Positions 8,333 through 37,846 of a stretch of DNA of 37,846 nucleotides are shown piece after piece. Below the pieces are notes generated by a model, which worked only from the letters and a program-made list of their open reading frames with translations, did no database searches and was not told the origin of the DNA. The translations under genes and the position numbers were made by a program. The DNA is from a virus (Duplodnaviria; Caudoviricetes). The stretch is taken from the IMG/VR virus record IMGVR_UViG_3300016665_000270, positions 1 to 37,846 of that record. One strand, given 5' to 3'. Numbering within the stretch: position 1 is the first letter of the stretch; every line of letters begins with the position of its first letter.

Positions 8333-8570
8333 TGTAGCCGCGCTCTTTCAGCGTGGTATAGGATTTGATGCGCGTTTTGGCGAAGATCGCTTTGGGAGTC
8401 TTCGATAGGCGCAGCTTTCGTTCCCGTTGCATTCGGTTGTTTTTCTGACGACATCTCCCGCACCGCTGGGTTTCCTCCGCGTCACGGATCTGACAGTCAA
8501 CGCAAATCCCCTGCGCAATCAATTGATCACGCAGGGGGCGGCCAGTTTTGATAATTAACGTTCGTCTCAT
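8325..8570 (-). CDS. Small basic Zn-finger-like protein
   Basis: CVDC...CGRC; R/K-rich; ATGA-coupled to tmk. Confidence 0.6.
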   Translation of the reverse strand: MRRTLIIKTGRPLRDQLIAQGICVDCQIRDAEETQRCGRCRQKNNRMQRERKLRLSKTPKAIFAKTRIKSYTTLKERGYIK

Positions 8571-9133
8571 TGCCCAAGCACCTCGTCAATCAGCTTGATG
8601 GCGTCGGCCAGGACTTGGTCAGGCGACTGGCTGGCGCCGACAGGCTCCATCCAACCATCGTCTGCCAGCTCGGCATACCCTGCATGTACGCGCTTAAGCC
8701 GCGCAATTTCGCTTGCAGTTATACAGCCGTCACGCGCCATTAAACGCTTCACGGCAACACCTACCGGCACGTCCAGCCATATTCGCAAACTGAGGTCTAT
8801 TCCCTCGGTGGCGATGTCGTTCAGCGAGTCAATTAAATCAAGGTCAACACCATCGCCGTATCCCTGATAGGCTGCGGTCGAGAGATCGAAACGGTCGATC
8901 AGGATCAGGTCAGTTCTCAGCACGATCTTTTTGATCAGCTCGCAGTGGGCGCGCCGGTCGGCCATTAGCTGCATCGTTGCGATGAATGGGTCAGTTGATG
9001 GAATATCTGATCGTGGCTCAGACGTCTGCCAGCACAGTAGGCCAACGCCCTCATAATACTCGCGGATTTTGCTGGCCAGCGTGCTTTTCCCGCTGCCATC
9101 GATGCCCTCGAATGTGATGATTTTTGCGGCCAT
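8567..9133 (-). CDS. tmk: Thymidylate (dTMP) kinase
   Basis: ITFEGIDGSGKST P-loop, EP motif, ADR, DRF..S..AYQG. Confidence 0.93.
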   Translation of the reverse strand: MAAKIITFEGIDGSGKSTLASKIREYYEGVGLLCWQTSEPRSDIPSTDPFIATMQLMADRRAHCELIKKIVLRTDLILIDRFDLSTAAYQGYGDGVDLDLIDSLNDIATEGIDLSLRIWLDVPVGVAVKRLMARDGCITASEIARLKRVHAGYAELADDGWMEPVGASQSPDQVLADAIKLIDEVLGQ

Positions 9134-15451: not shown

Positions 15452-15645
15452 GAGAACTGATTCATTCAGTAGCAAGGGCAATCTGCACGGCTGGCGCGTG
15501 CCTGCTGGCCATTATCCTGATCGCAGGATATTTCGAATGGTGGTCATGGGAAGAGCTGACCACGCCAATTCAGGCGATCATCGGCGGGTGGTTTATCTCC
15601 CTGTTGATCATGATGGCCAGCCACGATCGGAGGGTGACACGATGA
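15448..15645 (+). CDS. Small two-TM membrane protein
   Basis: GTGA coupling on the left, ATGA on the right; two hydrophobic segments. Confidence 0.6.
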
Positions 15646-16439
15646 ACCAGTATCATGATCTTGTCCAGGGCGTCCTTGATCACGGCATCACCCGCGACGA
15701 CCGGACAGGCGTCGGCACTCGCTCTGTATTTGGTCGCCAGTTGCGCTTTGACCTGCGTGCTGGCTTCCCCCTGCTGACCACCCGAAAGATCCACTGGCGG
15801 TCAATTGTGAGCGAATTGTTATGGATGCTGCGCGGGGATTCCAACGTCCGATCGCTGCAGCGCGACGGAATCACCATCTGGAACGAATGGGCAGACGAGA
15901 ATGGCGACCTTGGGCCGGTCTATGGTGTCCAATGGCGGCATTGGGGCGGCGATCAACTGAAGCGAGTCATCAACGAGATCCGCACCAATCCGACCTCCCG
16001 ACGGCTGATCGTAAGCGCCTGGAATGCGGCGGAGATCAACCGAATGGCACTCCCCCCGTGCCACGCTCTGTTTCAATTTCACGTCGATCTGCGCAGCCTG
16101 ACCGATGGATATCTCGACTGCCATCTCTACCAGCGGTCATCAGATGTCTTTCTCGGCCTGCCGTTCAATATTGCGTCCTACGCCCTGCTGACTCATATGG
16201 TAGCGCACGTCTGCGGCCTCAATGCTGGCGATCTGATCATCTCGATTGGTGACGCTCACCTGTACCGCAACCACGAGGAGCAGGCGCGGCTCCTGCTGAC
16301 GCGCGATCACCTGCCAGCACCCGCGCTGCGGCTCAACCCTGATCTATGGCGCGGTCAGATTGATCGGTTCACGGCTGAGGATATCAGCCTCGAAAACTAC
16401 CAGTACCACCCGGCAATCAAAGCGCCGGTGGCAGTATAG
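15642..16439 (+). CDS. thyA: Thymidylate synthase
   Basis: Start MNQYHDLV; [55 protein letters not shown]. Confidence 0.97.
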
Positions 16440-16452
16440 GAGGAAACACACA

Positions 16453-17145
16453 ATGGCTTTGAAATGGCATAACGCAGCCATCAAAATGGCGAAAGAAGGG
16501 CGCACCGCCGAGCAGATCATGGACGGCGTGGGAATCTCCGCCGACGTCTACCACAGGCACTGTCAGCGCAATCCGGATCTGGCCGCGCAGCTCCCGCGAG
16601 TGATCAAAATCGACGAACCGCCGATCCTTACTGCGGAGATTTCCCTTATCGCTGCGATCGATCGCAATGGTGGGCTTGGGAAAAACGGCGACTTGCAGTG
16701 GCACCAATCAGCAGATCTTCAACGATTCCGATTTTTGACCCATGGGCATACTGTAATCATGGGCCGGAGGACGTATCAATCATTAAACATCGTTGCGCTT
16801 CCTGATCGGAAGCTCGTGGTTCTAACGAACAGGAAGAATTTTACTGTTGACCATCCTGATGTCCAGATTGCGTCATCCCTCGTGATGGCGCTGCTGGATG
16901 CGCAACAGGCAGGGGCCGAAAAGATTTTTTTGGCTGGCGGCGAAGAGGTCTACACCCTTGGTCTCGGTTTTGCGGACAGAATCTACCTGACCGAGATCGA
17001 CACCGCAATCAATCGGCCTGACGTTGTGTTTCCGATTTGGGATCTCCCGCACTGGGATCTGATCGAGACTCGCGGCCCATATCGGGCCGATGACAGCAAC
17101 CAATATCCCTACACCTACAAAACCTATACCCGGAGGCAAAAGTGA
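16453..17145 (+). CDS. folA: Dihydrofolate reductase with ~60-aa N-terminal HTH-like extension
   Basis: LIAAIDRNGGLGKNGDL.W..SADL.RF, VIMGRRT..S, LP.R..VVL, GG.EVY, RIYLTEI; GGAGG RBS. Confidence 0.92.
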   Translation: MALKWHNAAIKMAKEGRTAEQIMDGVGISADVYHRHCQRNPDLAAQLPRVIKIDEPPILTAEISLIAAIDRNGGLGKNGDLQWHQSADLQRFRFLTHGHTVIMGRRTYQSLNIVALPDRKLVVLTNRKNFTVDHPDVQIASSLVMALLDAQQAGAEKIFLAGGEEVYTLGLGFADRIYLTEIDTAINRPDVVFPIWDLPHWDLIETRGPYRADDSNQYPYTYKTYTRRQK

Positions 17146-17471
17146 TAGAAGAACTGACCAACGCTCAACGACTCTGCGACCTGCTGATTCTTGATCGGCT
17201 GGCATCGCAGGCCTATACGACCTATCTCAACCGCGCGCAGGCCGCGCGGAATGCTGGCCACGAGGATGAGGCGCAATTCTACGCCGATCGGGCGGACGCG
17301 ACCTTAATCGCAACAAACGAAATCCACAAGCTGAGAGACAAGGCCATTGCCAAGGCTCTTATTGAATGGGCGCAGCTGGACATCCTCGATTTCCGGCTTC
17401 ACGTCGAGCGGCTTGGGCTGACAATCCCCGCGCCAATCCTGCGGGATATGATGGAGGAGGTGACCAAGTGA
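17142..17471 (+). CDS. Hypothetical helical protein
   Basis: Coupled to folA and dcd; GGAGG RBS. Confidence 0.7.
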   Translation: MIEELTNAQRLCDLLILDRLASQAYTTYLNRAQAARNAGHEDEAQFYADRADATLIATNEIHKLRDKAIAKALIEWAQLDILDFRLHVERLGLTIPAPILRDMMEEVTK

Positions 17472-18100
17472 TACTCAATGACCAACAGATCCGCGCACGA
17501 TGCGAATGGGACGCTCCGCCAATGATATCGCCATATGTCTACACTCAGTGCCGTGAAGTGATAACCATAGACAATCCGTTGCAGCTTACCAGTCGCACTA
17601 CACCCGTAGTCAGCTATGGTCAATCATCATTCGGATATGATATCCGACTAGATGCTACTGTAATAGATGTGTTTAGAAGCGAGATGCCATTTCTTGGACA
17701 GATGATTGATCCGAAAGCGTTTGATGGCAAACAAACGCTAGTCCATCAACTGCCGGAACGTGATGAGACCGGGATCTTTTACACACTCCAACCCCGCGCC
17801 TATGCCCTTGGCGTAAGCGTCGAGACGTTCGATATTCCGCTCAACGTCCTCGGGATCTGTTATTGCAAATCAACCTATGCCCGATGCGGCCTGATGGTCA
17901 ACACCACGCCCCTCGAACCTGGTTGGCGCGGTCAGCTGGTCATCGAGCTGGCCAACCTGACCGACCTGCCGATGAAGGTTTATGCCAACGAGGGGATTGC
18001 CCAAGTGGTTTTCTTCGAGGGCGACCAGCCTTCAATCACCTACGCCGACAGGTCTGGCAAATATCAGGATCAGAAAGGAATCGTAACGGCGCGAATATGA
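17468..18100 (+). CDS. dcd: dCTP deaminase
   Basis: GTG start (ILNDQQI); VSYG.SSFGYDIRL, KSTYARCG..VNTTPLEPGW.G.L.IE..N, YANEGIAQ, Y....GKYQ.Q. Confidence 0.93.
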   Translation: MILNDQQIRARCEWDAPPMISPYVYTQCREVITIDNPLQLTSRTTPVVSYGQSSFGYDIRLDATVIDVFRSEMPFLGQMIDPKAFDGKQTLVHQLPERDETGIFYTLQPRAYALGVSVETFDIPLNVLGICYCKSTYARCGLMVNTTPLEPGWRGQLVIELANLTDLPMKVYANEGIAQVVFFEGDQPSITYADRSGKYQDQKGIVTARI

Positions 18101-18606
18101 GCGAACTTGCGATCAATACACGCGCAGGACGGGCGGCAGTCGAGCAGCAGCACCAGATCGAGGCGTGGCTGTCCGACTGCTACCCCGACACCTACACTGT
18201 CAGCACGCCATCGACAGCACCGGCGCCGTACGACGGGTTTCTGTGCCGTTGGGGTGAGGTTGTGGCGGTGTACGAGATCAAGACCCGCTTGACCTCAATC
18301 GAGCAGCTGAACCGGATGCCGATCCACCCCGGCTGTGTGATCCTGACCTACTCGAAAATCACCGAGGGCCAAGCGATCAGCCGCCAATTGAATGTGCCTT
18401 TTTTGTTTGTGGCATACCTTGAGGTTGACCGCAAATTAGCCATATGGCAAATTACAGAAAGTAACGGCGACCTGTGCCACCTGTGGCAATCCAGCCACAC
18501 TGAAACGCAGGCCACCATCAACGGGGGAAGGGCGGTCAGGCAAAACGTATACCTCCCCCTCGACAAGGCGCGGATCTTCCAGATTCAGCCGAACCGATAC
18601 TTATAA
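18097..18606 (+). CDS. PD-(D/E)XK nuclease-like protein
   Basis: 'PYDGFL...VAVYEIKTR'; ATGA-coupled start at 18097. Confidence 0.65.
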   Translation: MSELAINTRAGRAAVEQQHQIEAWLSDCYPDTYTVSTPSTAPAPYDGFLCRWGEVVAVYEIKTRLTSIEQLNRMPIHPGCVILTYSKITEGQAISRQLNVPFLFVAYLEVDRKLAIWQITESNGDLCHLWQSSHTETQATINGGRAVRQNVYLPLDKARIFQIQPNRYL

Positions 18607-18617
18607 CGGAGAACACA

Positions 18618-19274
18618 ATGGCATCAAACATCACTGACGAAAAGCGGAGCGCATTTGATTGGATCATGTTTCTGTTGATCCACGTCGTCCTTATTGGCGG
18701 CATCACCTATGCCGGATTCGCGATTTATGGCGAGCGGCTGGGCATCTGGGTGGGTGCATCCGCGTTCATCGCCGGAGTGACCAGCACCTACCTATACGCG
18801 AAGATCGTCCCCGGCGAAACCATAATGAAAGTCCTTCTCGGGCTGGCTGTGGCAGCGAATGCGGCCTATATGGTTCACAATGGGGCCAAGGCCATCGGCA
18901 TCAACGCCTACAATGACGCGCAGATCCGCAAATATGAGGCGGGGATGGCAGCGGCGGCGGGTGCCACATCTCGTGCGATCGCCCGCACAATTGGCGCATC
19001 GGCGAAGGATGCCTCGGCCATCGAAAAGACCTTCAGCGATGGCGTCTCGACTATGGCAGCTTTGCTGGCGTTCATTGAGATGAGCCTGGCGATCATCTTC
19101 TTTTCTGTGGCATCGAAGCGGATCAGCGCAATCAACCGTGGCAGCGCGGCTGACTCCCCACGGGTGGCAGGCTTTGCCACAAGCGGCACTCTCAACTACC
19201 CCTCACCGACGATTGCCACGCGTGGCAATGTGGGGGCCACAGACCCAAAAGCGCAGCCCCCGGCCCACTGGTAA
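18618..19274 (+). CDS. Four-TM membrane protein (short, non-frameshifted form)
   Basis: GGAG RBS; four hydrophobic helices; low-complexity C-tail. Confidence 0.85.
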   Translation: MASNITDEKRSAFDWIMFLLIHVVLIGGITYAGFAIYGERLGIWVGASAFIAGVTSTYLYAKIVPGETIMKVLLGLAVAANAAYMVHNGAKAIGINAYNDAQIRKYEAGMAAAAGATSRAIARTIGASAKDASAIEKTFSDGVSTMAALLAFIEMSLAIIFFSVASKRISAINRGSAADSPRVAGFATSGTLNYPSPTIATRGNVGATDPKAQPPAHW

Positions 19275-19281
19275 CCGGGGG
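19244..19281 (+). other. Programmed -1 ribosomal frameshift signal
   Basis: In-frame heptamer C CCA AAA (19244-19250), 6-nt spacer, then hairpin CCCCCGG...CCGGGGG. Confidence 0.75.
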
Positions 19282-19813
19282 GCCACCCATATGGCAAAAC
19301 TACGGCGTACCTGACACAGGGCCGCTTGCTCCACAGGTGGCAGCACTGCCACAGGGTCAGCGCGAGGCCATCACGGAGCTGATTGCCACTGCCACGTCGC
19401 CAGCCCCACAGGTGTCAGAGACCACGGCAGAACCGGACGTGGACTGGCCGGAAGAGTTGCCACAGATCGACAGCGGCAAGCTGGCATCTTCCACGGGTGG
19501 CAAGGTCGAGGTGGCAACACCTGCCACGCCAGCACCAACCGAAGCCCCACAGGTGGCGGAGGAGGAGCAGGGGCCGCAACTCCCGCCAGCGTCGATCCGG
19601 CTGTCGGTGGATCACGTCAGGGTGTCAGAGAACACCTACGCTTTCCGACTGCGGTGGAGCAATCCGGCGGGGGTGTCACCCAAGCGGCCAGCCATCTATT
19701 ACCAGTGGGTCAGAGAAGACGTGTTCAGGATGATAACAGAGGATAAAGAATCTTATGGACGTTACAAGAATCAAATCATTGCGCAATTCACTGAGCAGCA
19801 GGAAGCCGTTTGA
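19250..19813 (+). CDS. -1 frame extension of the membrane protein: Pro/Ala/Glu linker plus small beta-rich C-terminal domain
   Basis: The -1 frame is open from 19154 to 19813. The annotated GTG at 19337 has no SD. Predicted fusion is ~398 aa. Confidence 0.7.
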   Translation, partial: SAAPGPLVTGGPPIWQNYGVPDTGPLAPQVAALPQGQREAITELIATATSPAPQVSETTAEPDVDWPEELPQIDSGKLASSTGGKVEVATPATPAPTEAPQVAEEEQGPQLPPASIRLSVDHVRVSENTYAFRLRWSNPAGVSPKRPAIYYQWVREDVFRMITEDKESYGRYKNQIIAQFTEQQEAV

Positions 19814-20003
19814 CCCGATCACCCACGCCTGGGAGATCCCCGCGGCCTTGTTTGAATGCAAGCAACTCGCAGTAGATGGCAAGAATCTTGCCTTGCTTGC
19901 GCTTCTGGAATCAATTATAACCGTCTCAGGGGCTGACAAAAGGACTTGGATCGACCTTCCCCGGCAGGTCGCGGAACAGGCAGCAGCTGGGAGGATTGAT
20001 TGA
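19755..20003 (+). CDS. Hypothetical protein
   Basis: Fills the gap and is TTGA-coupled to the next gene; start uncertain. Confidence 0.5.
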   Translation: MDVTRIKSLRNSLSSRKPFDPITHAWEIPAALFECKQLAVDGKNLALLALLESIITVSGADKRTWIDLPRQVAEQAAAGRID

Positions 20004-20815
20004 GTACCGACCTTCAGAAAATCACTGATCATCTCATCGTGGCCGGGTTTGGTGTCCTCGACGGACACCTCCCGGTCTTTACCTCATCAGCTTGGGAGGA
20101 TCACGTCCAAGCGTGGATGGACGCTGAATCAGAAGTGACCACCCACAGGTGGCGACAGGCGGCAATATGCGCCTCAATCTCTGTGCATTTCGGCGAGCAG
20201 TCCATCAAGCGGTTTGCTGAGTCTGTGGGAGTCCACGAACGGCGGATCTACGAATACCGCGCCGCCTATCAGCTCGCCACGCAGTTTGCTGAACGTCCCC
20301 CCAATCTCGATTTCACTCATTGGATCGTGGCCAGTGCCGCCGATGATCCCGTCGCCGTCATCGAGGAGGCAGCCGAAACCAGCCTGTCGGTGCGCGGACT
20401 GAAGAAGCTCATCGCCGAGCGCACCGCCCCACCAACGTCCTCGACCCTCCCGGCAATCGCCGATAATCCACAGGTGGCAGCAGCGTGGCAACAGTTCCGC
20501 ACCGCCTGCCACACGCTTTCCCACATTGCGCCAATCACTGCCACTGCCATCAATTACGCCCTGGAAGAGGTGCAATATGCTCTCGAAATCCCTGAGCAGA
20601 CTGTGGCGGAGCGGATCATCCATTGCATCGGCGAACTCGGCCTAACCGAACTGGATCCGATAGCGCAGACCCTCGGTGAGCATCGCGACAGGGTAAGGGT
20701 CTGGCTTTCGCGGATGGTCGAGGGTGGCCAGCTGGCCAGCCGTCGGCAGGAGATCGACGAACGCGCACCTGGTGCGCGGGGGCCAGCACGCGTTTACTAT
20801 TCGATTGCAAGCTGA
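20000..20815 (+). CDS. Putative DNA-binding regulator (LmbU-like HTH region plus C-terminal wHTH); candidate late-gene activator
   Basis: 'FAESVGVHERRIYEYR..Y..F.ER..NLDFTHW...SLSVRGLK' and 'IAQTLGEHRDRVRVWLSRMVEGG...GPARVYY'. Confidence 0.6.
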   Translation: MSTDLQKITDHLIVAGFGVLDGHLPVFTSSAWEDHVQAWMDAESEVTTHRWRQAAICASISVHFGEQSIKRFAESVGVHERRIYEYRAAYQLATQFAERPPNLDFTHWIVASAADDPVAVIEEAAETSLSVRGLKKLIAERTAPPTSSTLPAIADNPQVAAAWQQFRTACHTLSHIAPITATAINYALEEVQYALEIPEQTVAERIIHCIGELGLTELDPIAQTLGEHRDRVRVWLSRMVEGGQLASRRQEIDERAPGARGPARVYYSIAS

Positions 20816-20862: not shown

Positions 20863-20894
20863 AGGGCTTGTGTTCTACAAGCCCTTTTTGTTTT
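20863..20894 (+). terminator. Intrinsic terminator ending the early/middle operon
   Basis: AGGGCTTGT-GTTCT-ACAAGCCCT-TTTTGTTTT. Confidence 0.85.
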
Positions 20895-20980: not shown

Positions 20981-21004
20981 GGGGCGGGTGTCCGCCCCGT
21001 TTTT
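20981..21004 (+). terminator. Terminator-like hairpin immediately before the late operon
   Basis: GGGGCGG-GTGT-CCGCCCC-GTTTTT. Confidence 0.65.
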
Positions 21005-21019: not shown

Positions 21020-21238
21020 ATGGAAAATCTTGGAAATATTGGAGTCTGGCTCAAGGGTTTAATTGCCGCTGTGATCGGTGGCGCGGCCAATGCGCTGACT
21101 ATGGTCATCGTCGATCCGCTCAATTTCAACCTCAATGAGGGCGTGGGCAACCTGTTGACGGTTGCCGCCACCTCGGCGATCGTCGCCGCGGCGATGTACC
21201 TCAAGCAGTCGCCGCTCCCCAACGTGGAGGGCCAGTAA
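21020..21238 (+). CDS. Putative holin (2 TM)
   Basis: AGGAGG RBS; 'WLKGLIAAVIGGAANA...YLKQSPLP'. Confidence 0.65.
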   Translation: MENLGNIGVWLKGLIAAVIGGAANALTMVIVDPLNFNLNEGVGNLLTVAATSAIVAAAMYLKQSPLPNVEGQ

Positions 21239-21711
21239 TGCGCCGTGCATCTCTCGCGCTGATTGCGCTGATTGCTTTCACCTCCGCTTGCTCCGATCAG
21301 GGCAAGCAATTCGCCGCCACTACTGACCGCATTGCCGGATATGTTGGAACGGGCCTGATCATCGTCGACCAGCAGACAAGCACTGGTCAGATGTCACCCG
21401 AAACGGGCGTGGCCATCGTGACGGCTCTTCGAGCGGTGAACACGCTCAATGGGCAGGTCGTCGACGAGGCCAAAAAGTACGTCGATGAGAATGGCAACTT
21501 GAAGCTGACCGGGGATGGGCAGGACAAGCTCCTGAAGATCCTCGACAGCTCGACCGTCGTCGTCAATGGCCTGATCAACGATGAGCGGGTCTTGTCGCTG
21601 CAGCCGACGCAGCGTCAGCAGATCACCCTCGTTGCAATGAACATCGGCGCAACGATCGCCAGCCTGACCGAGCTGGTCAAAACCGCCAAGCTGGCCAAGG
21701 GGGGCAAATGA
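21238..21711 (+). CDS. Lipoprotein (possibly spanin-like)
   Basis: MRR, hydrophobic core, then TSA-C lipobox; located among lysis-like genes. Confidence 0.65.
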   Translation: MRRASLALIALIAFTSACSDQGKQFAATTDRIAGYVGTGLIIVDQQTSTGQMSPETGVAIVTALRAVNTLNGQVVDEAKKYVDENGNLKLTGDGQDKLLKILDSSTVVVNGLINDERVLSLQPTQRQQITLVAMNIGATIASLTELVKTAKLAKGGK

Positions 21712-21890
21712 ATATCCTTCAAATCCTGCCGATTCTGCCATCGTTCATCCTACTGATCACCAACGAGATCCTTCGTGAATCAGCGCGAACGGGCAAAACG
21801 CCTGAAGAGCTGCTCAACGATGCGGGACTCCGCACCGATGAGAACGAGCAGAAGGCGATCGAGCTGCTCAACCGCCTGACTGGTAAGTAA
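21708..21890 (+). CDS. Small hypothetical protein
   Basis: ATGA-coupled; amphipathic. Confidence 0.65.
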   Translation: MNILQILPILPSFILLITNEILRESARTGKTPEELLNDAGLRTDENEQKAIELLNRLTGK

Positions 21891-22003
21891 CGCTTACAAG
21901 TTCACCCACCCCGGCATATGGGCGGGGACTCTGCAGGCGATCAGCCTCTCGCCGGGGAAAAGCAGAGATCTCCCGCCCACCACTACACACGCGGTACATT
22001 ACG

Positions 22004-22255
22004 ATGATCCCCGACATCCCCGGAAGTGAACGAATGGACAAAGACTACATTGATGTAACCGTCTCATCGATAATTGCCCTTATGGCCGGATGGCTGATCA
22101 AGTCGTTCCACTCAGCCAGTCGAAAGGATCTCGAAGAGGTCAAGCAGGAGATGCGCCATTTTGTGACCACGCGCGCCTTTGACAAGGAGCTGGCCTCGAT
22201 CTCGACCCGACTTGACAGGATCGAGGAGAAAATTGATAAACTGATGTCGCAATGA
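22004..22255 (+). CDS. Single-TM coiled-coil protein (holin/XhlA-like); start may be 22034
   Basis: One TM then 'RLDRIEEKIDKL'; coupled to terS. Confidence 0.6.
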   Translation: MIPDIPGSERMDKDYIDVTVSSIIALMAGWLIKSFHSASRKDLEEVKQEMRHFVTTRAFDKELASISTRLDRIEEKIDKLMSQ

Positions 22256-22692
22256 AGAAAGCAACCAGATCAGGCGGGAGGCCCAAGTCGGATAAACCCA
22301 AAGGCAGGCCGACCAAGCTCAACGCCGACAAACAATCCAGAATCCTTGAAGCCGTGCGTGAAGGTCTACCCTACACCACGGCTTGTGCATTGGCGGGTAT
22401 TCATTACTCGACGTTTGCCGAGTGGAAGCTCAAAGGCGAACAAGATCCTGAATCAGTGTATGCCGATTTTGCCATGGCGGTAAAAGAAGCAGAGGCAGAA
22501 GCAGAGGCGGCAAACGTCAAGCGCATCAGATCCGCAGCCGATAACGGCCAATGGCAGGCCGCGGCGTGGATCCTCGAGCGGCGTCACCCTGACAAATGGG
22601 GCAGGACGGAGCGCACCGAGCAGCAGCACAGTGGCCAGGTTGAAATCGTGGTGAGACGTGAGCAGAAGAGCGGCACAACCAAAACAGATTGA
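22252..22692 (+). CDS. terS: Terminase small subunit
   Basis: GRPTKL, HTH 'ACALAGIHYSTFAEW', 'WQAAAWILERR.P..WG'; directly upstream of terL. Confidence 0.8.
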   Translation: MKKATRSGGRPKSDKPKGRPTKLNADKQSRILEAVREGLPYTTACALAGIHYSTFAEWKLKGEQDPESVYADFAMAVKEAEAEAEAANVKRIRSAADNGQWQAAAWILERRHPDKWGRTERTEQQHSGQVEIVVRREQKSGTTKTD

Positions 22693-23878
22693 GCTTGTCC
22701 TGCCGACCCTGCACGCAGGCCAGCAACAGATTGTCGACGAGGCGCGGCGCTTCAACGTATTGGCCTGCGGTCGTCGTTTTGGTAAGACGATGTTGGGCAT
22801 TGATCTCCTGATCGACAAAGCCCTCGATGGTCTGCCGGTCGGGTGGTTCTCGCCGACTTATCGAATGCTTGGCGAGGTCTGGAAGGCGGTTTACGATACC
22901 ACCAGACCACTGCACGCGCGGGTGTCGATCCAAGAGCATCGAATCGAGCTGATTACCGGGGGAGTGATTGATTGCTGGTCGCTGGACGCTGCGGACTCGG
23001 TTCGCGGTCGCAAATATCAGCGTGTGGTGATTGACGAGGCCGCGATGGTGGCCGGACTCGGTGACGCTTGGCAGGCTGCAATCCGGCCGACCCTGACCGA
23101 CTATCAGGGGGACGCGTTTTTCCTCAGCACGCCGAAGGGGATCAACTTCTTCCACGAGTGCTACAGTCGCGGCATCGACGAGACGCAAAGCGACTGGCAG
23201 AGCTGGCACGCGCCCACTACGGCGAATCCGTATATTGACCCAAGCGAGGTCGAGGCAGCACGGCAGGAGCTACCGGAGCAGATCTACCGGCAGGAATACT
23301 TGGCGGAGTTTCTTCAGAACGAAGGCGCGGTGTTCAGGAATATCGATGCGTGCCTGTCAGCAGACAGCGGCGATCACAAGAACCATCGTCTCTTCGCTGG
23401 GGTGGACTGGGGCCAGCAAAACGATTTCACGGCGATATCGATCATCTGCGCGACTTGTCGCCACGAGGTTGAGCTTGACCGGTTCAACAAGATCGAATGG
23501 GCATTCCAGAGAGCACGATTGAAAGCCGCGCTGGATCGTTGGCGAGTGATGGCGGTGATGGTTGAAACCAACAGCATCGGCCAACCAAACCTCGAGGCAT
23601 TGATGCGCGAAGGCTTACCAGTGCGGGGATTCGAGACGACGGCATCGAGCAAGCCGCCGCTGATCCAATCGCTGGCCCTTGCGCTTGAGCGGGTCGAATA
23701 TCAATGGCTACCGGATCAGGTTGGGCGGATGGAGCTTTTGTCGTACGAGGCCAAACGCAATCCGACCACTGGACGTGTCACCTATTCCGCACCATCCGGC
23801 GGCCACGATGACACAGTGATGGCTCGGGCAATCGCGCTGGAATGCATGCAACGAGGAGCGGTGGGGAATGCTTACTGA
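22658..23878 (+). CDS. terL: Terminase large subunit
   Basis: Walker A CGRRFGKT, Walker B VVIDEAA, STPKG, nuclease GVDWG, HDDTVMA. Confidence 0.95.
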   Translation: MSRRAAQPKQIELVLPTLHAGQQQIVDEARRFNVLACGRRFGKTMLGIDLLIDKALDGLPVGWFSPTYRMLGEVWKAVYDTTRPLHARVSIQEHRIELITGGVIDCWSLDAADSVRGRKYQRVVIDEAAMVAGLGDAWQAAIRPTLTDYQGDAFFLSTPKGINFFHECYSRGIDETQSDWQSWHAPTTANPYIDPSEVEAARQELPEQIYRQEYLAEFLQNEGAVFRNIDACLSADSGDHKNHRLFAGVDWGQQNDFTAISIICATCRHEVELDRFNKIEWAFQRARLKAALDRWRVMAVMVETNSIGQPNLEALMREGLPVRGFETTASSKPPLIQSLALALERVEYQWLPDQVGRMELLSYEAKRNPTTGRVTYSAPSGGHDDTVMARAIALECMQRGAVGNAY

Positions 23879-25091: not shown

Positions 25092-27596
25092 ATGGGCATA
25101 ATAGACAGATTCAAAGCAGCTTCCACCGCCTTCCGATTCCCGTCAAATCTGACGCATCGGGCAGGCTCGTTTCTGTCGTTGGCTCCTCGAACCTTCCCAT
25201 ACGAGAACACCGACCCGCTTGGCGACTCCGCAGTGGTCAACGTGCTGGCGTGGATTCAGCGAAATTTCACGCAGGCCGAGCTTGGCGTTTATCAAAAGAA
25301 TCGTGAAGGTGAAAAGACTGAGCTCGTCGACCATCCGCTGACTCGCCTGATGTATCGCCCGAATGCGGGATACGGCGCGTCACAGCTTTGGGCCGGTACG
25401 CTCCTCAGCTACCACCTTGACGGCAACGCATACTGGATCAAGGCGCGTAATGCCCGAGGGTTCGGCGTGCCAACTGAGGTCTGGTATGAACCCCACTGGG
25501 GGATCAAGCCGCACTGGCCGGAGGATGGATCGCAGTTCATCGACTACTACGAGCGGCGCATCAACGGCACGATTGAGCGCATCCCGGTCGAGAACGTCAT
25601 CCATTTCCGCAACGGGCTGAACCCTGCGAACCCACGCTATGGACTCGCCCCGCTCAAGGCTGCGCTCCTTCAGGTCTTCACCGATACCGAGGTTTCACTC
25701 TGGGTCGCCGCGCTGTGCCGGAATATGGCGATTCCTGGCGTAATCGTTTCGCCTCAGGAATCGTTCGGGATGTCAGCCGAGAAGGCCGAACAGATCAAGC
25801 AGACGTGGAAGCGCAAGTTTGGCGGCGACTCTCGCGGCGAACCGTTGATCCTCGACTTTCAGGCCAGTGTGACCACGCTGGGTTACGATCCGAAAAACAT
25901 GGAGTTTGGCGCGATCACCAACCTCGCCGAGTCGCGCATTGCCGGTGCGATGGGTGTCCCGGCGATCGTCGCGGGGTTGAGTGCGGGTCTGGACTCGTCG
26001 ACCTACAACAACCTGGCCAACTTGAAGAAGTCGGCATTCGAGGAGTGCCTCATTCCAACGTGGGAGCAGTTCCAGACCACGCTGACGGCGCAGCTCCTGC
26101 CGGACTATGAGCGGGATATCGAAGCCAAGCGCATCAAGGTCTACTTCGACACCAGCGAGATCCGCGCACTTCAGGAGAATCAAGGGGAGAAGGAACAGCG
26201 CGCCATTGCCGCGTGGCAGGCTGGGGTTACGACGCTCAACGAAGCGCGCGCACAATTTGGCTATGATCCCGATCCGGCTGGCGATTACTACCTGCAGCCC
26301 AACAGCTCGACTCCGACCACGCCAGCCAAAACCCTCGACAAGATCGAGAATCCACCAGCTCCGGTGGTGCCAGTTCAGCCAATTCCGGGCGGCAGTAGCC
26401 AACCGCCAACGGCGGCTGAAGACGAAGGAGAGGCGGTCAAGTCCTCCTCGGGCCGCCTCTTCAAGTCTGTCAACTGGCAAGGGATGACGTTGCGCAGGGA
26501 ACCCACAGAGATCGAGGCGCGAATCATCAAGCAGGTTGATGAGGTTTACCAAAGCGGCAAGCTCTCGATGGAAGGGCGGCTCCTTTCTCTTCGTGGCAAG
26601 TACGTTGACCAGATCATCGATGAGCTTGACGACCTCGATCCAGAGGATTACTACACGGCAACGGTTATGCCGGTCGACGCTGACCGGCTGGCAGTCGCTG
26701 CGATCCTGACCGCGCTGTTTCTCCGTGGCGCGGCTTTGATCGTCGGCGAACTCAGGAATCAGGGGGCTGGCGATGGTGACCCGTCGGCCCGTCCTGATTC
26801 CCGACTGATCAACACGATTGCTGGCGCGCTGGTGAGCAAGATCGCAAACGACGTGCAGGCGCGTGGCACGGGCGCGGCGGTGTCCGCTTCCCTTCTTGGG
26901 CAAGATGTGCGCGCCAGTGTAACCACCGCGCTTGATCAGGGTTCAACGGCCTATGTCACCCGATCCGCAGCGGAGGCGACCAACTGGGCTCTCGGCAAGG
27001 GGCGTGACGCGGAGATTGAGCAGCGATCGGACGAGATTGAATATCTGGTCTACTCTGCCGTGCTGGATAACTCGACCTGCAGGCCGTGCGGCGAGGCTGA
27101 CGGCATGGGGGGACAGCTGGGTGAGATCCCCGACGCTCCAAACCCTGACTGTGACGGCGGGGCCAATTGCAGGTGTCTGCACATCCCGGTAGTGGCCACC
27201 GATGAGTTCAAGGGGCTCACCGGGAAGAAGGCAACTTATCGCGGCGAATCAATCGACCTGAAGCCAACCGACGGGATGAAAAGCGAAGCGCAGAAGGGGC
27301 TTGACTGGCGCAAGGAGCATGGCCGCGGTGGCACAGCCGTCGGCATTGCACGCGCACGCGACATCGTAAATGGGCGGGAGTTGTCGCCAAGCACGGTGAA
27401 GCGCATGTATTCATTCTTCAGCCGCCACGAGGTGGACAAGCAGGGCGAGGGCTTCTCCCCTGGTGAAGATGGCTATCCATCAAACGGGCGGATTGCGTGG
27501 GCCTTGTGGGGTGGTGATGCCGGCTTCTCGTGGTCAAAGAAGAAAATCGAGCAGATGGCCAACATCGACGAGTCAAAAAGTTTTGTCAGTGAATAG
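25092..27596 (+). CDS. HK97-type portal protein fused to a Mu gpF/SPP1 gp7-like domain and a further C-terminal domain
   Basis: Portal motifs LDGNAY, VIHFR, G..PL, T.NEAR; then 'AVLD..TC..C...G...NCRC'; then 'RMYSFFSRHE...GRIAWALWGGDAG..W'. Confidence 0.9.
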   Translation: MGIIDRFKAASTAFRFPSNLTHRAGSFLSLAPRTFPYENTDPLGDSAVVNVLAWIQRNFTQAELGVYQKNREGEKTELVDHPLTRLMYRPNAGYGASQLWAGTLLSYHLDGNAYWIKARNARGFGVPTEVWYEPHWGIKPHWPEDGSQFIDYYERRINGTIERIPVENVIHFRNGLNPANPRYGLAPLKAALLQVFTDTEVSLWVAALCRNMAIPGVIVSPQESFGMSAEKAEQIKQTWKRKFGGDSRGEPLILDFQASVTTLGYDPKNMEFGAITNLAESRIAGAMGVPAIVAGLSAGLDSSTYNNLANLKKSAFEECLIPTWEQFQTTLTAQLLPDYERDIEAKRIKVYFDTSEIRALQENQGEKEQRAIAAWQAGVTTLNEARAQFGYDPDPAGDYYLQPNSSTPTTPAKTLDKIENPPAPVVPVQPIPGGSSQPPTAAEDEGEAVKSSSGRLFKSVNWQGMTLRREPTEIEARIIKQVDEVYQSGKLSMEGRLLSLRGKYVDQIIDELDDLDPEDYYTATVMPVDADRLAVAAILTALFLRGAALIVGELRNQGAGDGDPSARPDSRLINTIAGALVSKIANDVQARGTGAAVSASLLGQDVRASVTTALDQGSTAYVTRSAAEATNWALGKGRDAEIEQRSDEIEYLVYSAVLDNSTCRPCGEADGMGGQLGEIPDAPNPDCDGGANCRCLHIPVVATDEFKGLTGKKATYRGESIDLKPTDGMKSEAQKGLDWRKEHGRGGTAVGIARARDIVNGRELSPSTVKRMYSFFSRHEVDKQGEGFSPGEDGYPSNGRIAWALWGGDAGFSWSKKKIEQMANIDESKSFVSE

Positions 27597-37568: not shown

Positions 37569-37846
37569 ATGACAGACCAGACCAGACAGCCATGGAGAGC
37601 ATTTGATCGCGGGTGGTTCGATCGCCATCAGTCACTACTCCTGCGTCTGGTCAACGCCCCGCTGATCGGGCCTCGACTACGGCGACGGCTTAACCTCCGG
37701 CCAGATCAGCGCGTCATAAAGCTTGCGCCAAATGCCGCGCATTACGCTCAGGATGGCGGCCAGTGCGTTGCAGTCGTCTACTCAGGGCCAGTCATAGCGA
37801 TGGCCTGCTACGCTGCAGCCAAGCCGCTCTGGTGGGCAATTCACTA
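37569..37846 (+). CDS. Minor tail protein, 5' part (continues at base 1)
   Basis: MTDQTRQPWRAFDRGWFDRHQ...KPLWWAIH(Y), with no stop before the window end. Confidence 0.8.
   Translation, partial: MTDQTRQPWRAFDRGWFDRHQSLLLRLVNAPLIGPRLRRRLNLRPDQRVIKLAPNAAHYAQDGGQCVAVVYSGPVIAMACYAAAKPLWWAIH

Follow-up and report, generated by a model that had tools for sequence, protein, structure and literature searches.

The genome of a tailed phage (Duplodnaviria; Caudoviricetes; IMG/VR record IMGVR_UViG_3300016665_000270) raises the question of why a single short palindrome, CCACnnGTGG, should be packed around one gene for a membrane protein. The window, by which we mean the whole stretch of 37,846 nucleotides that was analysed, was the subject of an earlier note, made from the sequence alone, which suggested a membrane DNA-tether or segregation system. 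Our analysis indicates that the palindromes, the membrane gene with its predicted frameshift extension, and a small overlapping open reading frame (ORF) belong to a cassette that is a real, conserved, and apparently undescribed system with a predicted swappable DNA code. The reading that we favor, with a probability of roughly 0.42, is that the long form of the membrane protein clamps a 2-kb stretch of DNA to the inner membrane, holding or gating the start of the late/packaging region.

Perfect copies of CCACnnGTGG number ten in the window, eight of which lie inside 18477-20477, in keeping with the earlier count of at least eight cores in about 2 kb; the 18-bp palindrome reported to start at 19212 and the additional near-matches were likewise recovered (Table 1). 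The chance expectation had been put at about one per genome. Dinucleotide shuffles gave a mean of 0.63 (ten were reached in 0 of 100), and the exact count against a Markov background, a check which the earlier note had named, set the ten observed against 0.66-1.12 expected per genome for orders 0-5. When 2816 palindrome patterns (4-mer halves, spacers 0-10) were compared, CCACnnGTGG occurred eight times in 2.1 kb and the runner-up three times. Matches with one mismatch were barely above expectation genome-wide (30 versus 17.4 ± 4.9), and hence the signal is the perfect core. A matrix from 65 sites reveals a family consensus of approximately (t)gCCAC-[AC/AG/GG]-GTGGc(a), with variable centers and flanks around the fixed core. 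Resampling of synonymous codons with the proteins kept resulted in a mean of 0.65 sites and a maximum of 5 in 3000, versus the eight observed, and the array sites, spread over three genes, use every one of the three codon phases and encode the peptides CHLW, PRVA, ATRG, PQVA, STGG, and THRW. Selection therefore acts on the array at the DNA level, as had been claimed from the differing reading frames.

The likely reader of these sites is the C-terminal domain that the predicted frameshift would add to the membrane protein (family A in the window). Among the close relatives (L001-L012, one pair of loci being near-identical), all 11 with the downstream region in view carry 4-8 copies of CCACnnGTGG at positions which are partly non-homologous; sites have been gained and lost inside neighboring genes, with the amino acids changing accordingly. 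In distant relatives the membrane domain and the slip are retained while the protein ends in other domains, which fall into seven groups, group G appearing F-like. These families have motifs of their own, including palindromes such as TGCCAACGTTGGCA, TTTAGTACTAAA, GCTCCCTAGGGAGC, TGCTAGTACTAGCA, and GCTCACAAGTGAGC and direct repeats such as CAAATRCCCG. The asymmetric motifs of family F are mostly on one strand, and L073 possesses only a weak F-like motif in 4-5 copies. Co-variation of such arrays with the C-terminal domain across homologous loci had been proposed as a check, and it was found: with 11 motifs scored, the own-type private motif is present at 2-8 copies in 24 of 28 loci and off-diagonal counts are near zero, a diagonal that is partly circular because the motifs were defined on these same loci. 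Two cases are free of this circularity, namely L022, where an unrelated N-terminal membrane domain accompanies a family-A domain (at 43%) and seven CCACnnGTGG sites, and MW202444, where a family-F domain is paired with the family-F motif.

Domain and motif also travel together. Loci L054 and L055 share 98% identity outside a cassette of 0.5-0.6 kb containing the motifs, the domain, and the small overlapping ORF, and in a second swap pair, L073 and L074, an identical membrane domain carries different tails. A tree of 25 membrane domains requires 3-4 changes for each of the domain families B, C, and F, which means that exchange has been repeated. In L021 and L022 (L022 3420-4990) an unrelated N-terminal domain, consisting of membrane and coiled-coil portions, is joined to the same CCCAAAA slip, family-A domain, and motif, so that the anchor, too, can be exchanged.

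In whole records the palindromes form one cluster per genome: 6 of 6 sites in 855 bp in G001, 4 of 4 in 506 bp in G002, 6 of 6 in G003, 8 of 9 in G004, 4 of 4 in G005, and 7 of 7 in G009. By comparison, genomes with other domains contain 0, 1, 2, and 0 copies of CCACnnGTGG, which are scattered. The earlier placement of the cluster on the membrane gene holds in the window, where five of the eight perfect sites fall within that gene, and fails in G001 and G002, where the array is found at a GH19 endolysin gene. This places it 13.5 kb (G001) and 9.2 kb (G002) away from the membrane gene, and one site precedes the endolysin start codon by approximately 25 nt. Loci L033, L034, and L071 have domain A at approximately 40% and no CCACnnGTGG inside the gene, and a local motif hunt in these three found no motif. 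The displaced arrays comprise 4 of 4 sites in 506 bp for L033 and 6 of 6 in 855 bp for L034 (chance 6.5e-5 and under 5e-6, respectively), which accounts for two of the four loci that departed from the pattern among the 28 scored. A scan for motif pairs, covering 10 of 64 parts of the viral contigs and yielding 121 loci, returned mostly chance pairs (two sites in each of 73 loci) and repeats, either tandem or peptide; three loci matched the family, and L115, with six sites, is another part of the L034 genome. Of the 12 cases in which the distance between array and terL could be measured, 11 have the array 1.7-4.3 kb upstream of that gene and one has it 6.7 kb upstream, the terminase of G007 and G008 being assigned by context only and none being found for G006. 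In the window terL starts 2.2-4.2 kb past the array.

Spacings of up to 130 bp between palindromes are phased with a period of 10.0 (R 0.68; 31 spacings after de-duplication, some of which may share ancestry), a result given by 0 of 20000 in each of two jitter nulls and persisting under codon-preserving jitter. The short spacings in the displaced arrays (38 and 77) are consistent with phasing at about 10 bp. The asymmetric family-F spacings were left out, and these, read by eye, do not follow the palindrome phasing. Phasing of about 10 bp suggests that an oligomer holds several sites at once.

The membrane protein to which the domain is attached has a short form modeled by AF2 with a pLDDT of 85.8, its helices being seen also by hydropathy. 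Family and fold searches with the membrane domain, PADLOC included, gave no match. The family is small and unannotated, with 78 proteins when clustered at 90% and 23 representatives when clustered at 50%, and the non-membrane segment carries the conserved polar residues N88, N99, and Q102. The earlier description of the gene as frameshifted agrees with a conserved −1 signal: an in-frame slippery heptamer (CCCAAAA, GGGAAAA, AAAAAAA, or CCCAAAC) is found no more than 28 nt from the stop codon in 41 of 43 loci, which include many near-duplicates and omit three further loci where no stop was reached, versus 0 of 30 control genes. Where complete, the −1 frame is open for 139-304 codons, L075 excepted. 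The predicted hairpin ranks in the top 1.3% of the 45-nt windows sampled here, does not exceed shuffled versions of that short stretch (z −0.9), and, among 23 loci taken as lineage representatives, is within the top 10% of local windows in 16. A −1 ribosomal frameshift is likely to yield the 398-aa long form, consisting of an anchor, a linker, and the C-terminal domain, with no Pfam match and no FtsK-like ATPase between them. The DNA encoding the linker holds three perfect sites.

On the basis of its co-variation with the motif, and with no fold match behind it, the family-A domain is predicted to be a sequence-specific DNA-binding domain. Its E-E-E-H-H topology presumably recalls the three-stranded β-sheet DNA-binding domains (integrase arm-binding, AP2); comparison with the HPI integrase arm domain gave Z 3.2, rmsd 4.7, and 56 aligned residues at rank 39. 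Profile comparison weakly links families A and C (probability 57%, E 1e-4), with no other convincing link. An ORF of 63-113 aa which starts within the end of the domain is seen in most families, and its product is likely to be a partner or regulator. In L097 and L073 this ORF begins downstream of the stop codon, none was found for L065, L067, or L079, and the one picked for L014 is a mis-call. A modeled complex of domain A and the small ORF product (score 0.12, mark 0.32) counts neither way.

These features suggest the following scheme. The palindromes would be candidate binding sites for the frameshift-added domain of the four-helix membrane protein. Many short and few long subunits would assemble into a membrane oligomer, the long arms of which could reach the phased array via the flexible linker. 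The resulting clamp would fix to the inner membrane the stretch that directly precedes the lysis and terminase genes, so as to control the place and timing of late expression and of the packaging of the phage's own genome. The small overlapping ORF might encode a partner or release factor, and the swappable code might set self DNA apart from the DNA of co-infecting relatives. Tentatively, this may be a new class of phage cassette, in which a membrane oligomer dosed by frameshifting and bearing an exchangeable code of DNA addresses (at least six domain families and eleven motifs) grips a helically phased array before the lysis/terminase genes and so would provide each lineage with a private dock, deciding where, when, and whose DNA is maintained or packaged, with no integrase, ParA, or NTPase.

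Other explanations of the array have to be weighed against this. A coding artefact, due to peptide repeats or local duplication in a disordered linker, has next to no chance of being correct: the peptide PQVA is common to several sites, two more sites are in a tail-gene peptide repeat, and many CCACnnGTGG pairs of unrelated viruses are tandem or peptide repeats, but the recoding null, the spread over codon phases and genes, and the displaced arrays at endolysin regions largely refute it, and the fixed core amid variable centers and flanks and the resistance of the phasing to codon-preserving jitter speak against it as well. It is also highly improbable that another protein reads the array, be it the product of the small ORF, the helix-turn-helix (HTH) protein encoded at 20000, or a host factor. 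All 6 of the array-bearing genomes or loci have both domain A and the small ORF, and all 6 of those lacking an array have neither; the small ORF is exchanged in the same cassette, and comparison of the fold of the C-terminal domain to known DNA binders gives no clear match. Yet the small ORF products are neutral or acidic (net −8 to +3), whereas the C-terminal domains of most families other than A are Lys/Arg-rich, and a host factor could not account for a motif that changes between 98%-identical phages. The HTH protein, which the earlier note had offered as a possible binder, is rejected since its gene is missing from the complete, array-bearing G005 and present in the array-free L054 and L055. 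We consider it very probable that the C-terminal domain, with or without a partner, binds the palindromes.

The purpose of such binding is less certain. With the same binding and tether, the cassette could serve partition or maintenance of a plasmid-like, non-integrated state, as a ParA-free centromere resembling SpdA2/sps or RacA/ram. This appears unlikely, even though there is a single compact array per genome and swapping would avoid incompatibility. The window is a circular or circularly permuted complete genome, since its last and first ORFs (37569-37846 and 1-1471) join in frame (completeness estimate 100%), and, as had been noted for integrase and ParA, no tyrosine integrase, ParA-type ATPase (PF13614, 0 of 5), or serine resolvase was detected in it or in four complete array-bearing relatives. 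The SpdA2/sps system influences segregational stability (PMC4170104). Against partition, G006 and MW202444, which have other domain types, possess a tyrosine integrase, possibly a dimer resolvase, beside the cassette; a centromere needs no place before the lysis/terminase genes, where the array sits even when displaced; and a plasmid state is without supporting evidence. Distinctly unlikely is a membrane-bound transcription regulator with stoperator-like sites, which would sense an envelope signal via its extracytoplasmic helices and repress late/lysis transcription, tethering being incidental. In its favor, joint swapping of operator and binder in one cassette resembles immunity swaps. The sites just ahead of the endolysin start and in the first kb of the operon in G001 and G002, the conserved polar residues of the non-membrane segment, and the strand bias of the family-F motifs would all suit a regulator, for which stoperators are a precedent (PMC9283540). 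The window array, however, is upstream of terminator-like hairpins and of any late promoter, and phasing over many coding-region sites together with the predicted excess of short form would better suit an assembled structure. Improbable, too, is kin-specific handling of DNA crossing the membrane, either as superinfection exclusion at entry or as SpdB2-like spreading between cells. If packaging starts at terS, the stretch just upstream of the terminase would be near the last-packaged, first-ejected end. Specificity is also swapped rapidly. SpdB2, a pore-forming, DNA-binding protein with four predicted membrane helices, has homologues on actinophages (PMC4447253). But exclusion should favor loss of sites, which have repeatedly been gained, and the cassette contains no ATPase or translocase and has no PADLOC match.

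Several observations also weigh against the clamp itself. The co-occurrence of the small ORF with the motif is as close as that of the domain. The C-terminal domain is without a match in Pfam, PHROG, NCBIfam, or PDB sequences, the best Z in fold searches was 4.6, and in the window clade family A has a near-neutral charge (net −4 to +4, counted on the final 90 residues). L071, a 3.3-kb fragment, has domain A with no array in view, and only G001 and G002, sister lineages that may reflect one event, separate the position of the array from that of the gene. Because two terminator-like hairpins (20863-20885 and 20981-20998) lie between the array and the lysis genes, a simple roadblock may not apply in the window; five such hairpins were found versus 2.9 in shuffles.

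Among described systems, the arrangement would work most like SpdA2/sps plus the anchor logic of TraB and SpdB2, and is set apart from SpdA2/sps and TraB because their defining features, one shared target and an ATPase, are not found here. SpdA2 of the Streptomyces plasmid pIJ101 binds a short palindrome, sps, present in 1-3 copies in its own coding region; SpdA proteins have 117-163 residues, and the part of the source at hand reports no membrane anchor or frameshift (PMC4170104). Similarly, the palindromes of the window, though not those of G001 and G002, are within the gene of the presumed binder (5 of 8 sites). According to the same excerpts, sps is a single conserved target (CGTCACGTGACG) across plasmids, whereas the phage core is different, eleven motifs are swapped between relatives, and the arrays have up to eight phased sites and can move to the endolysin gene. 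Family searches gave no match that would suggest homology to SpdA, SpdA sequences themselves not being compared directly. Streptomyces TraB is a membrane protein whose C-terminus recognizes plasmid-specific repeats (clt), and SpdB2 of pSVH1 is an oligomeric four-helix membrane protein which binds DNA non-specifically (PMC4447253). TraB has an FtsK-type ATPase between anchor and recognition domain, which is lacking here; the phage protein has four predicted hydrophobic helices and a predicted DNA-binding part, which may or may not correspond to those of SpdB2. The available portion of that paper mentions no frameshift or overlapping partner ORF for either, and no sequence or family match to them was found for the window cassette. 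Mycobacteriophage stoperators comprise many sites inside coding sequences, and binder and sites diversify into specificity groups (PMC9283540), both of which are reminiscent of the present case; as far as the excerpts of that work go, these sites are asymmetric, genome-wide, and read by a soluble repressor, whereas here there is one compact, phased, mostly palindromic array with a predicted membrane-anchored binder. Phages that likewise determine the location of their DNA, within the cell or at the membrane, through proteins of their own are phi29, where p16.7 (with p1) acts via terminal protein and displaced strands with no motif array (PMC4974454), and CGP3, where AlpA is an adaptor to the actin-like filament (AlpA/AlpC; PMC4446434). 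No actin-like filament gene was detected in the window, and no description of the arrangement was found in the literature searched (open papers, main texts).

Clustered palindromes mark one DNA region for anchoring in the case of RacA/ram and Noc/NBS of Bacillus, MatP/matS of E. coli, and ParB/parS. These systems are chromosomal, with peripheral proteins of fixed specificity that are not built by frameshifting, in contrast to the four-helix integral protein, swappable specificity, and frameshift predicted here. ParABS shares a single cluster of palindromic cis sites; its ParA-type ATPase is absent. In the −1 frameshift of phage tail chaperones (G/GT), a slippery heptamer sets the ratio of short to long product. 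By comparison, the predicted slip of the window falls in a gene for a membrane protein, flanked by the replication and lysis modules, and what it would append is a variable domain.

Little is settled about the way in which small tailed phages localize their DNA within the cell, or about how those with neither integrase nor ParA persist or keep their DNA separate from that of relatives infecting the same cell. The locus offers a compact, testable answer, with a domain of approximately 70 aa, a motif of 10-14 bp, and natural swap pairs. Should the binding be confirmed, the approximately eleven candidate pairs of domain and motif, which come with a predicted recognition code, could be used as orthogonal DNA-to-membrane tethers.

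Table 1. Position of the palindromes and of the cassette and neighboring genes in the window
Feature	Position	Strand	Remarks
Upstream gene	18097..18606	+	weak PD-(D/E)XK-like match, E 0.21; holds the 18477 site
Perfect CCACnnGTGG sites of the array	18477, 19158, 19216, 19331, 19491, 19547, 20143, 20468		basis: pattern count
Near-matches to CCACnnGTGG	19177, 19406, 19823, 20107		
18-bp perfect palindrome	19212..19229		surrounds the 19216 site
Membrane protein, short form, 218 aa	18618..19274	+	four hydrophobic helices; polar helical segment of ~50 aa before the fourth
Slippery heptamer CCCAAAA, predicted −1 site	19244..19250	+	in-frame X XXY YYZ
−1 frame extension, 187 aa (predicted long form 398 aa)	19250..19813	+	acidic Pro-rich linker, then C-terminal domain
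Predicted stimulatory hairpin	19257..19281	+	6 nt 3′ of the heptamer; short-form stop codon in loop
C-terminal domain, family A, 73 aa	19592..19810	+	predicted three β-strands then two helices, pLDDT 90
Small ORF, 82 aa	19755..20003	+	overlaps domain end in other frame; exchanged with domain
HTH-like protein gene	20000..20815	+	two perfect sites; no tracking of motif
Small membrane and lipoprotein-like genes, terminase small and large subunits	21020..23878	+	downstream

We infer a role in lysis for the small membrane and lipoprotein-like genes downstream of the array; the lipoprotein homologue comes after the endolysin in G001 and G002. The two perfect sites outside the array (860-869 and 917-926) have the full extended flanks and lie within a peptide repeat of a tail gene. 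The recoding null for this pair has a mean of 0.14, with 9 of 3000 reaching two, and such a pair is absent from the five relatives examined; these are possibly secondary sites. At 19415, a T>G change in close relatives from four DNA runs, the contigs of which span the region in fragments only, converts the near-match at 19406 into a perfect site (40 of 869 differences listed). The peptide (D/E)WP(E/D)E(L/I)P (approximately 19436-19465 in the window) is found repeatedly in linkers that vary in other respects, in the tails of some short forms, and in a nested ORF of MW202444, and is a possible interaction motif. Nested small ORFs of 35-106 aa which encode a hydrophobic helix in another frame of the linker are present in L022, L033, L034, L054, L055, L066, L073, L074, L077, and L097, most having a good ribosome-binding site; none was detected in the close clade of the window.

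A search of GTDB genome contigs with two queries found no relative, and no close terminase was found among named phages, the best being 39.5%. Directly upstream of its cassette, MW202444 (L097 1406-3740) encodes CopG-like and omega-like small regulators and a tyrosine recombinase, which could be a plasmid-type resolvase. G006 contains seven GCCAC-N3-GTGGC palindromes with a 24-bp period at 38072-38300, 10 kb from the cassette, which probably represent a tandem or peptide repeat. The window, from a phage of 38 kb, encodes thymidylate kinase, thymidylate synthase, dihydrofolate reductase, and dCTP deaminase (8567-9133 and 15645-18100), and a portal protein fused to a Mu-F-like domain (25092-27596).

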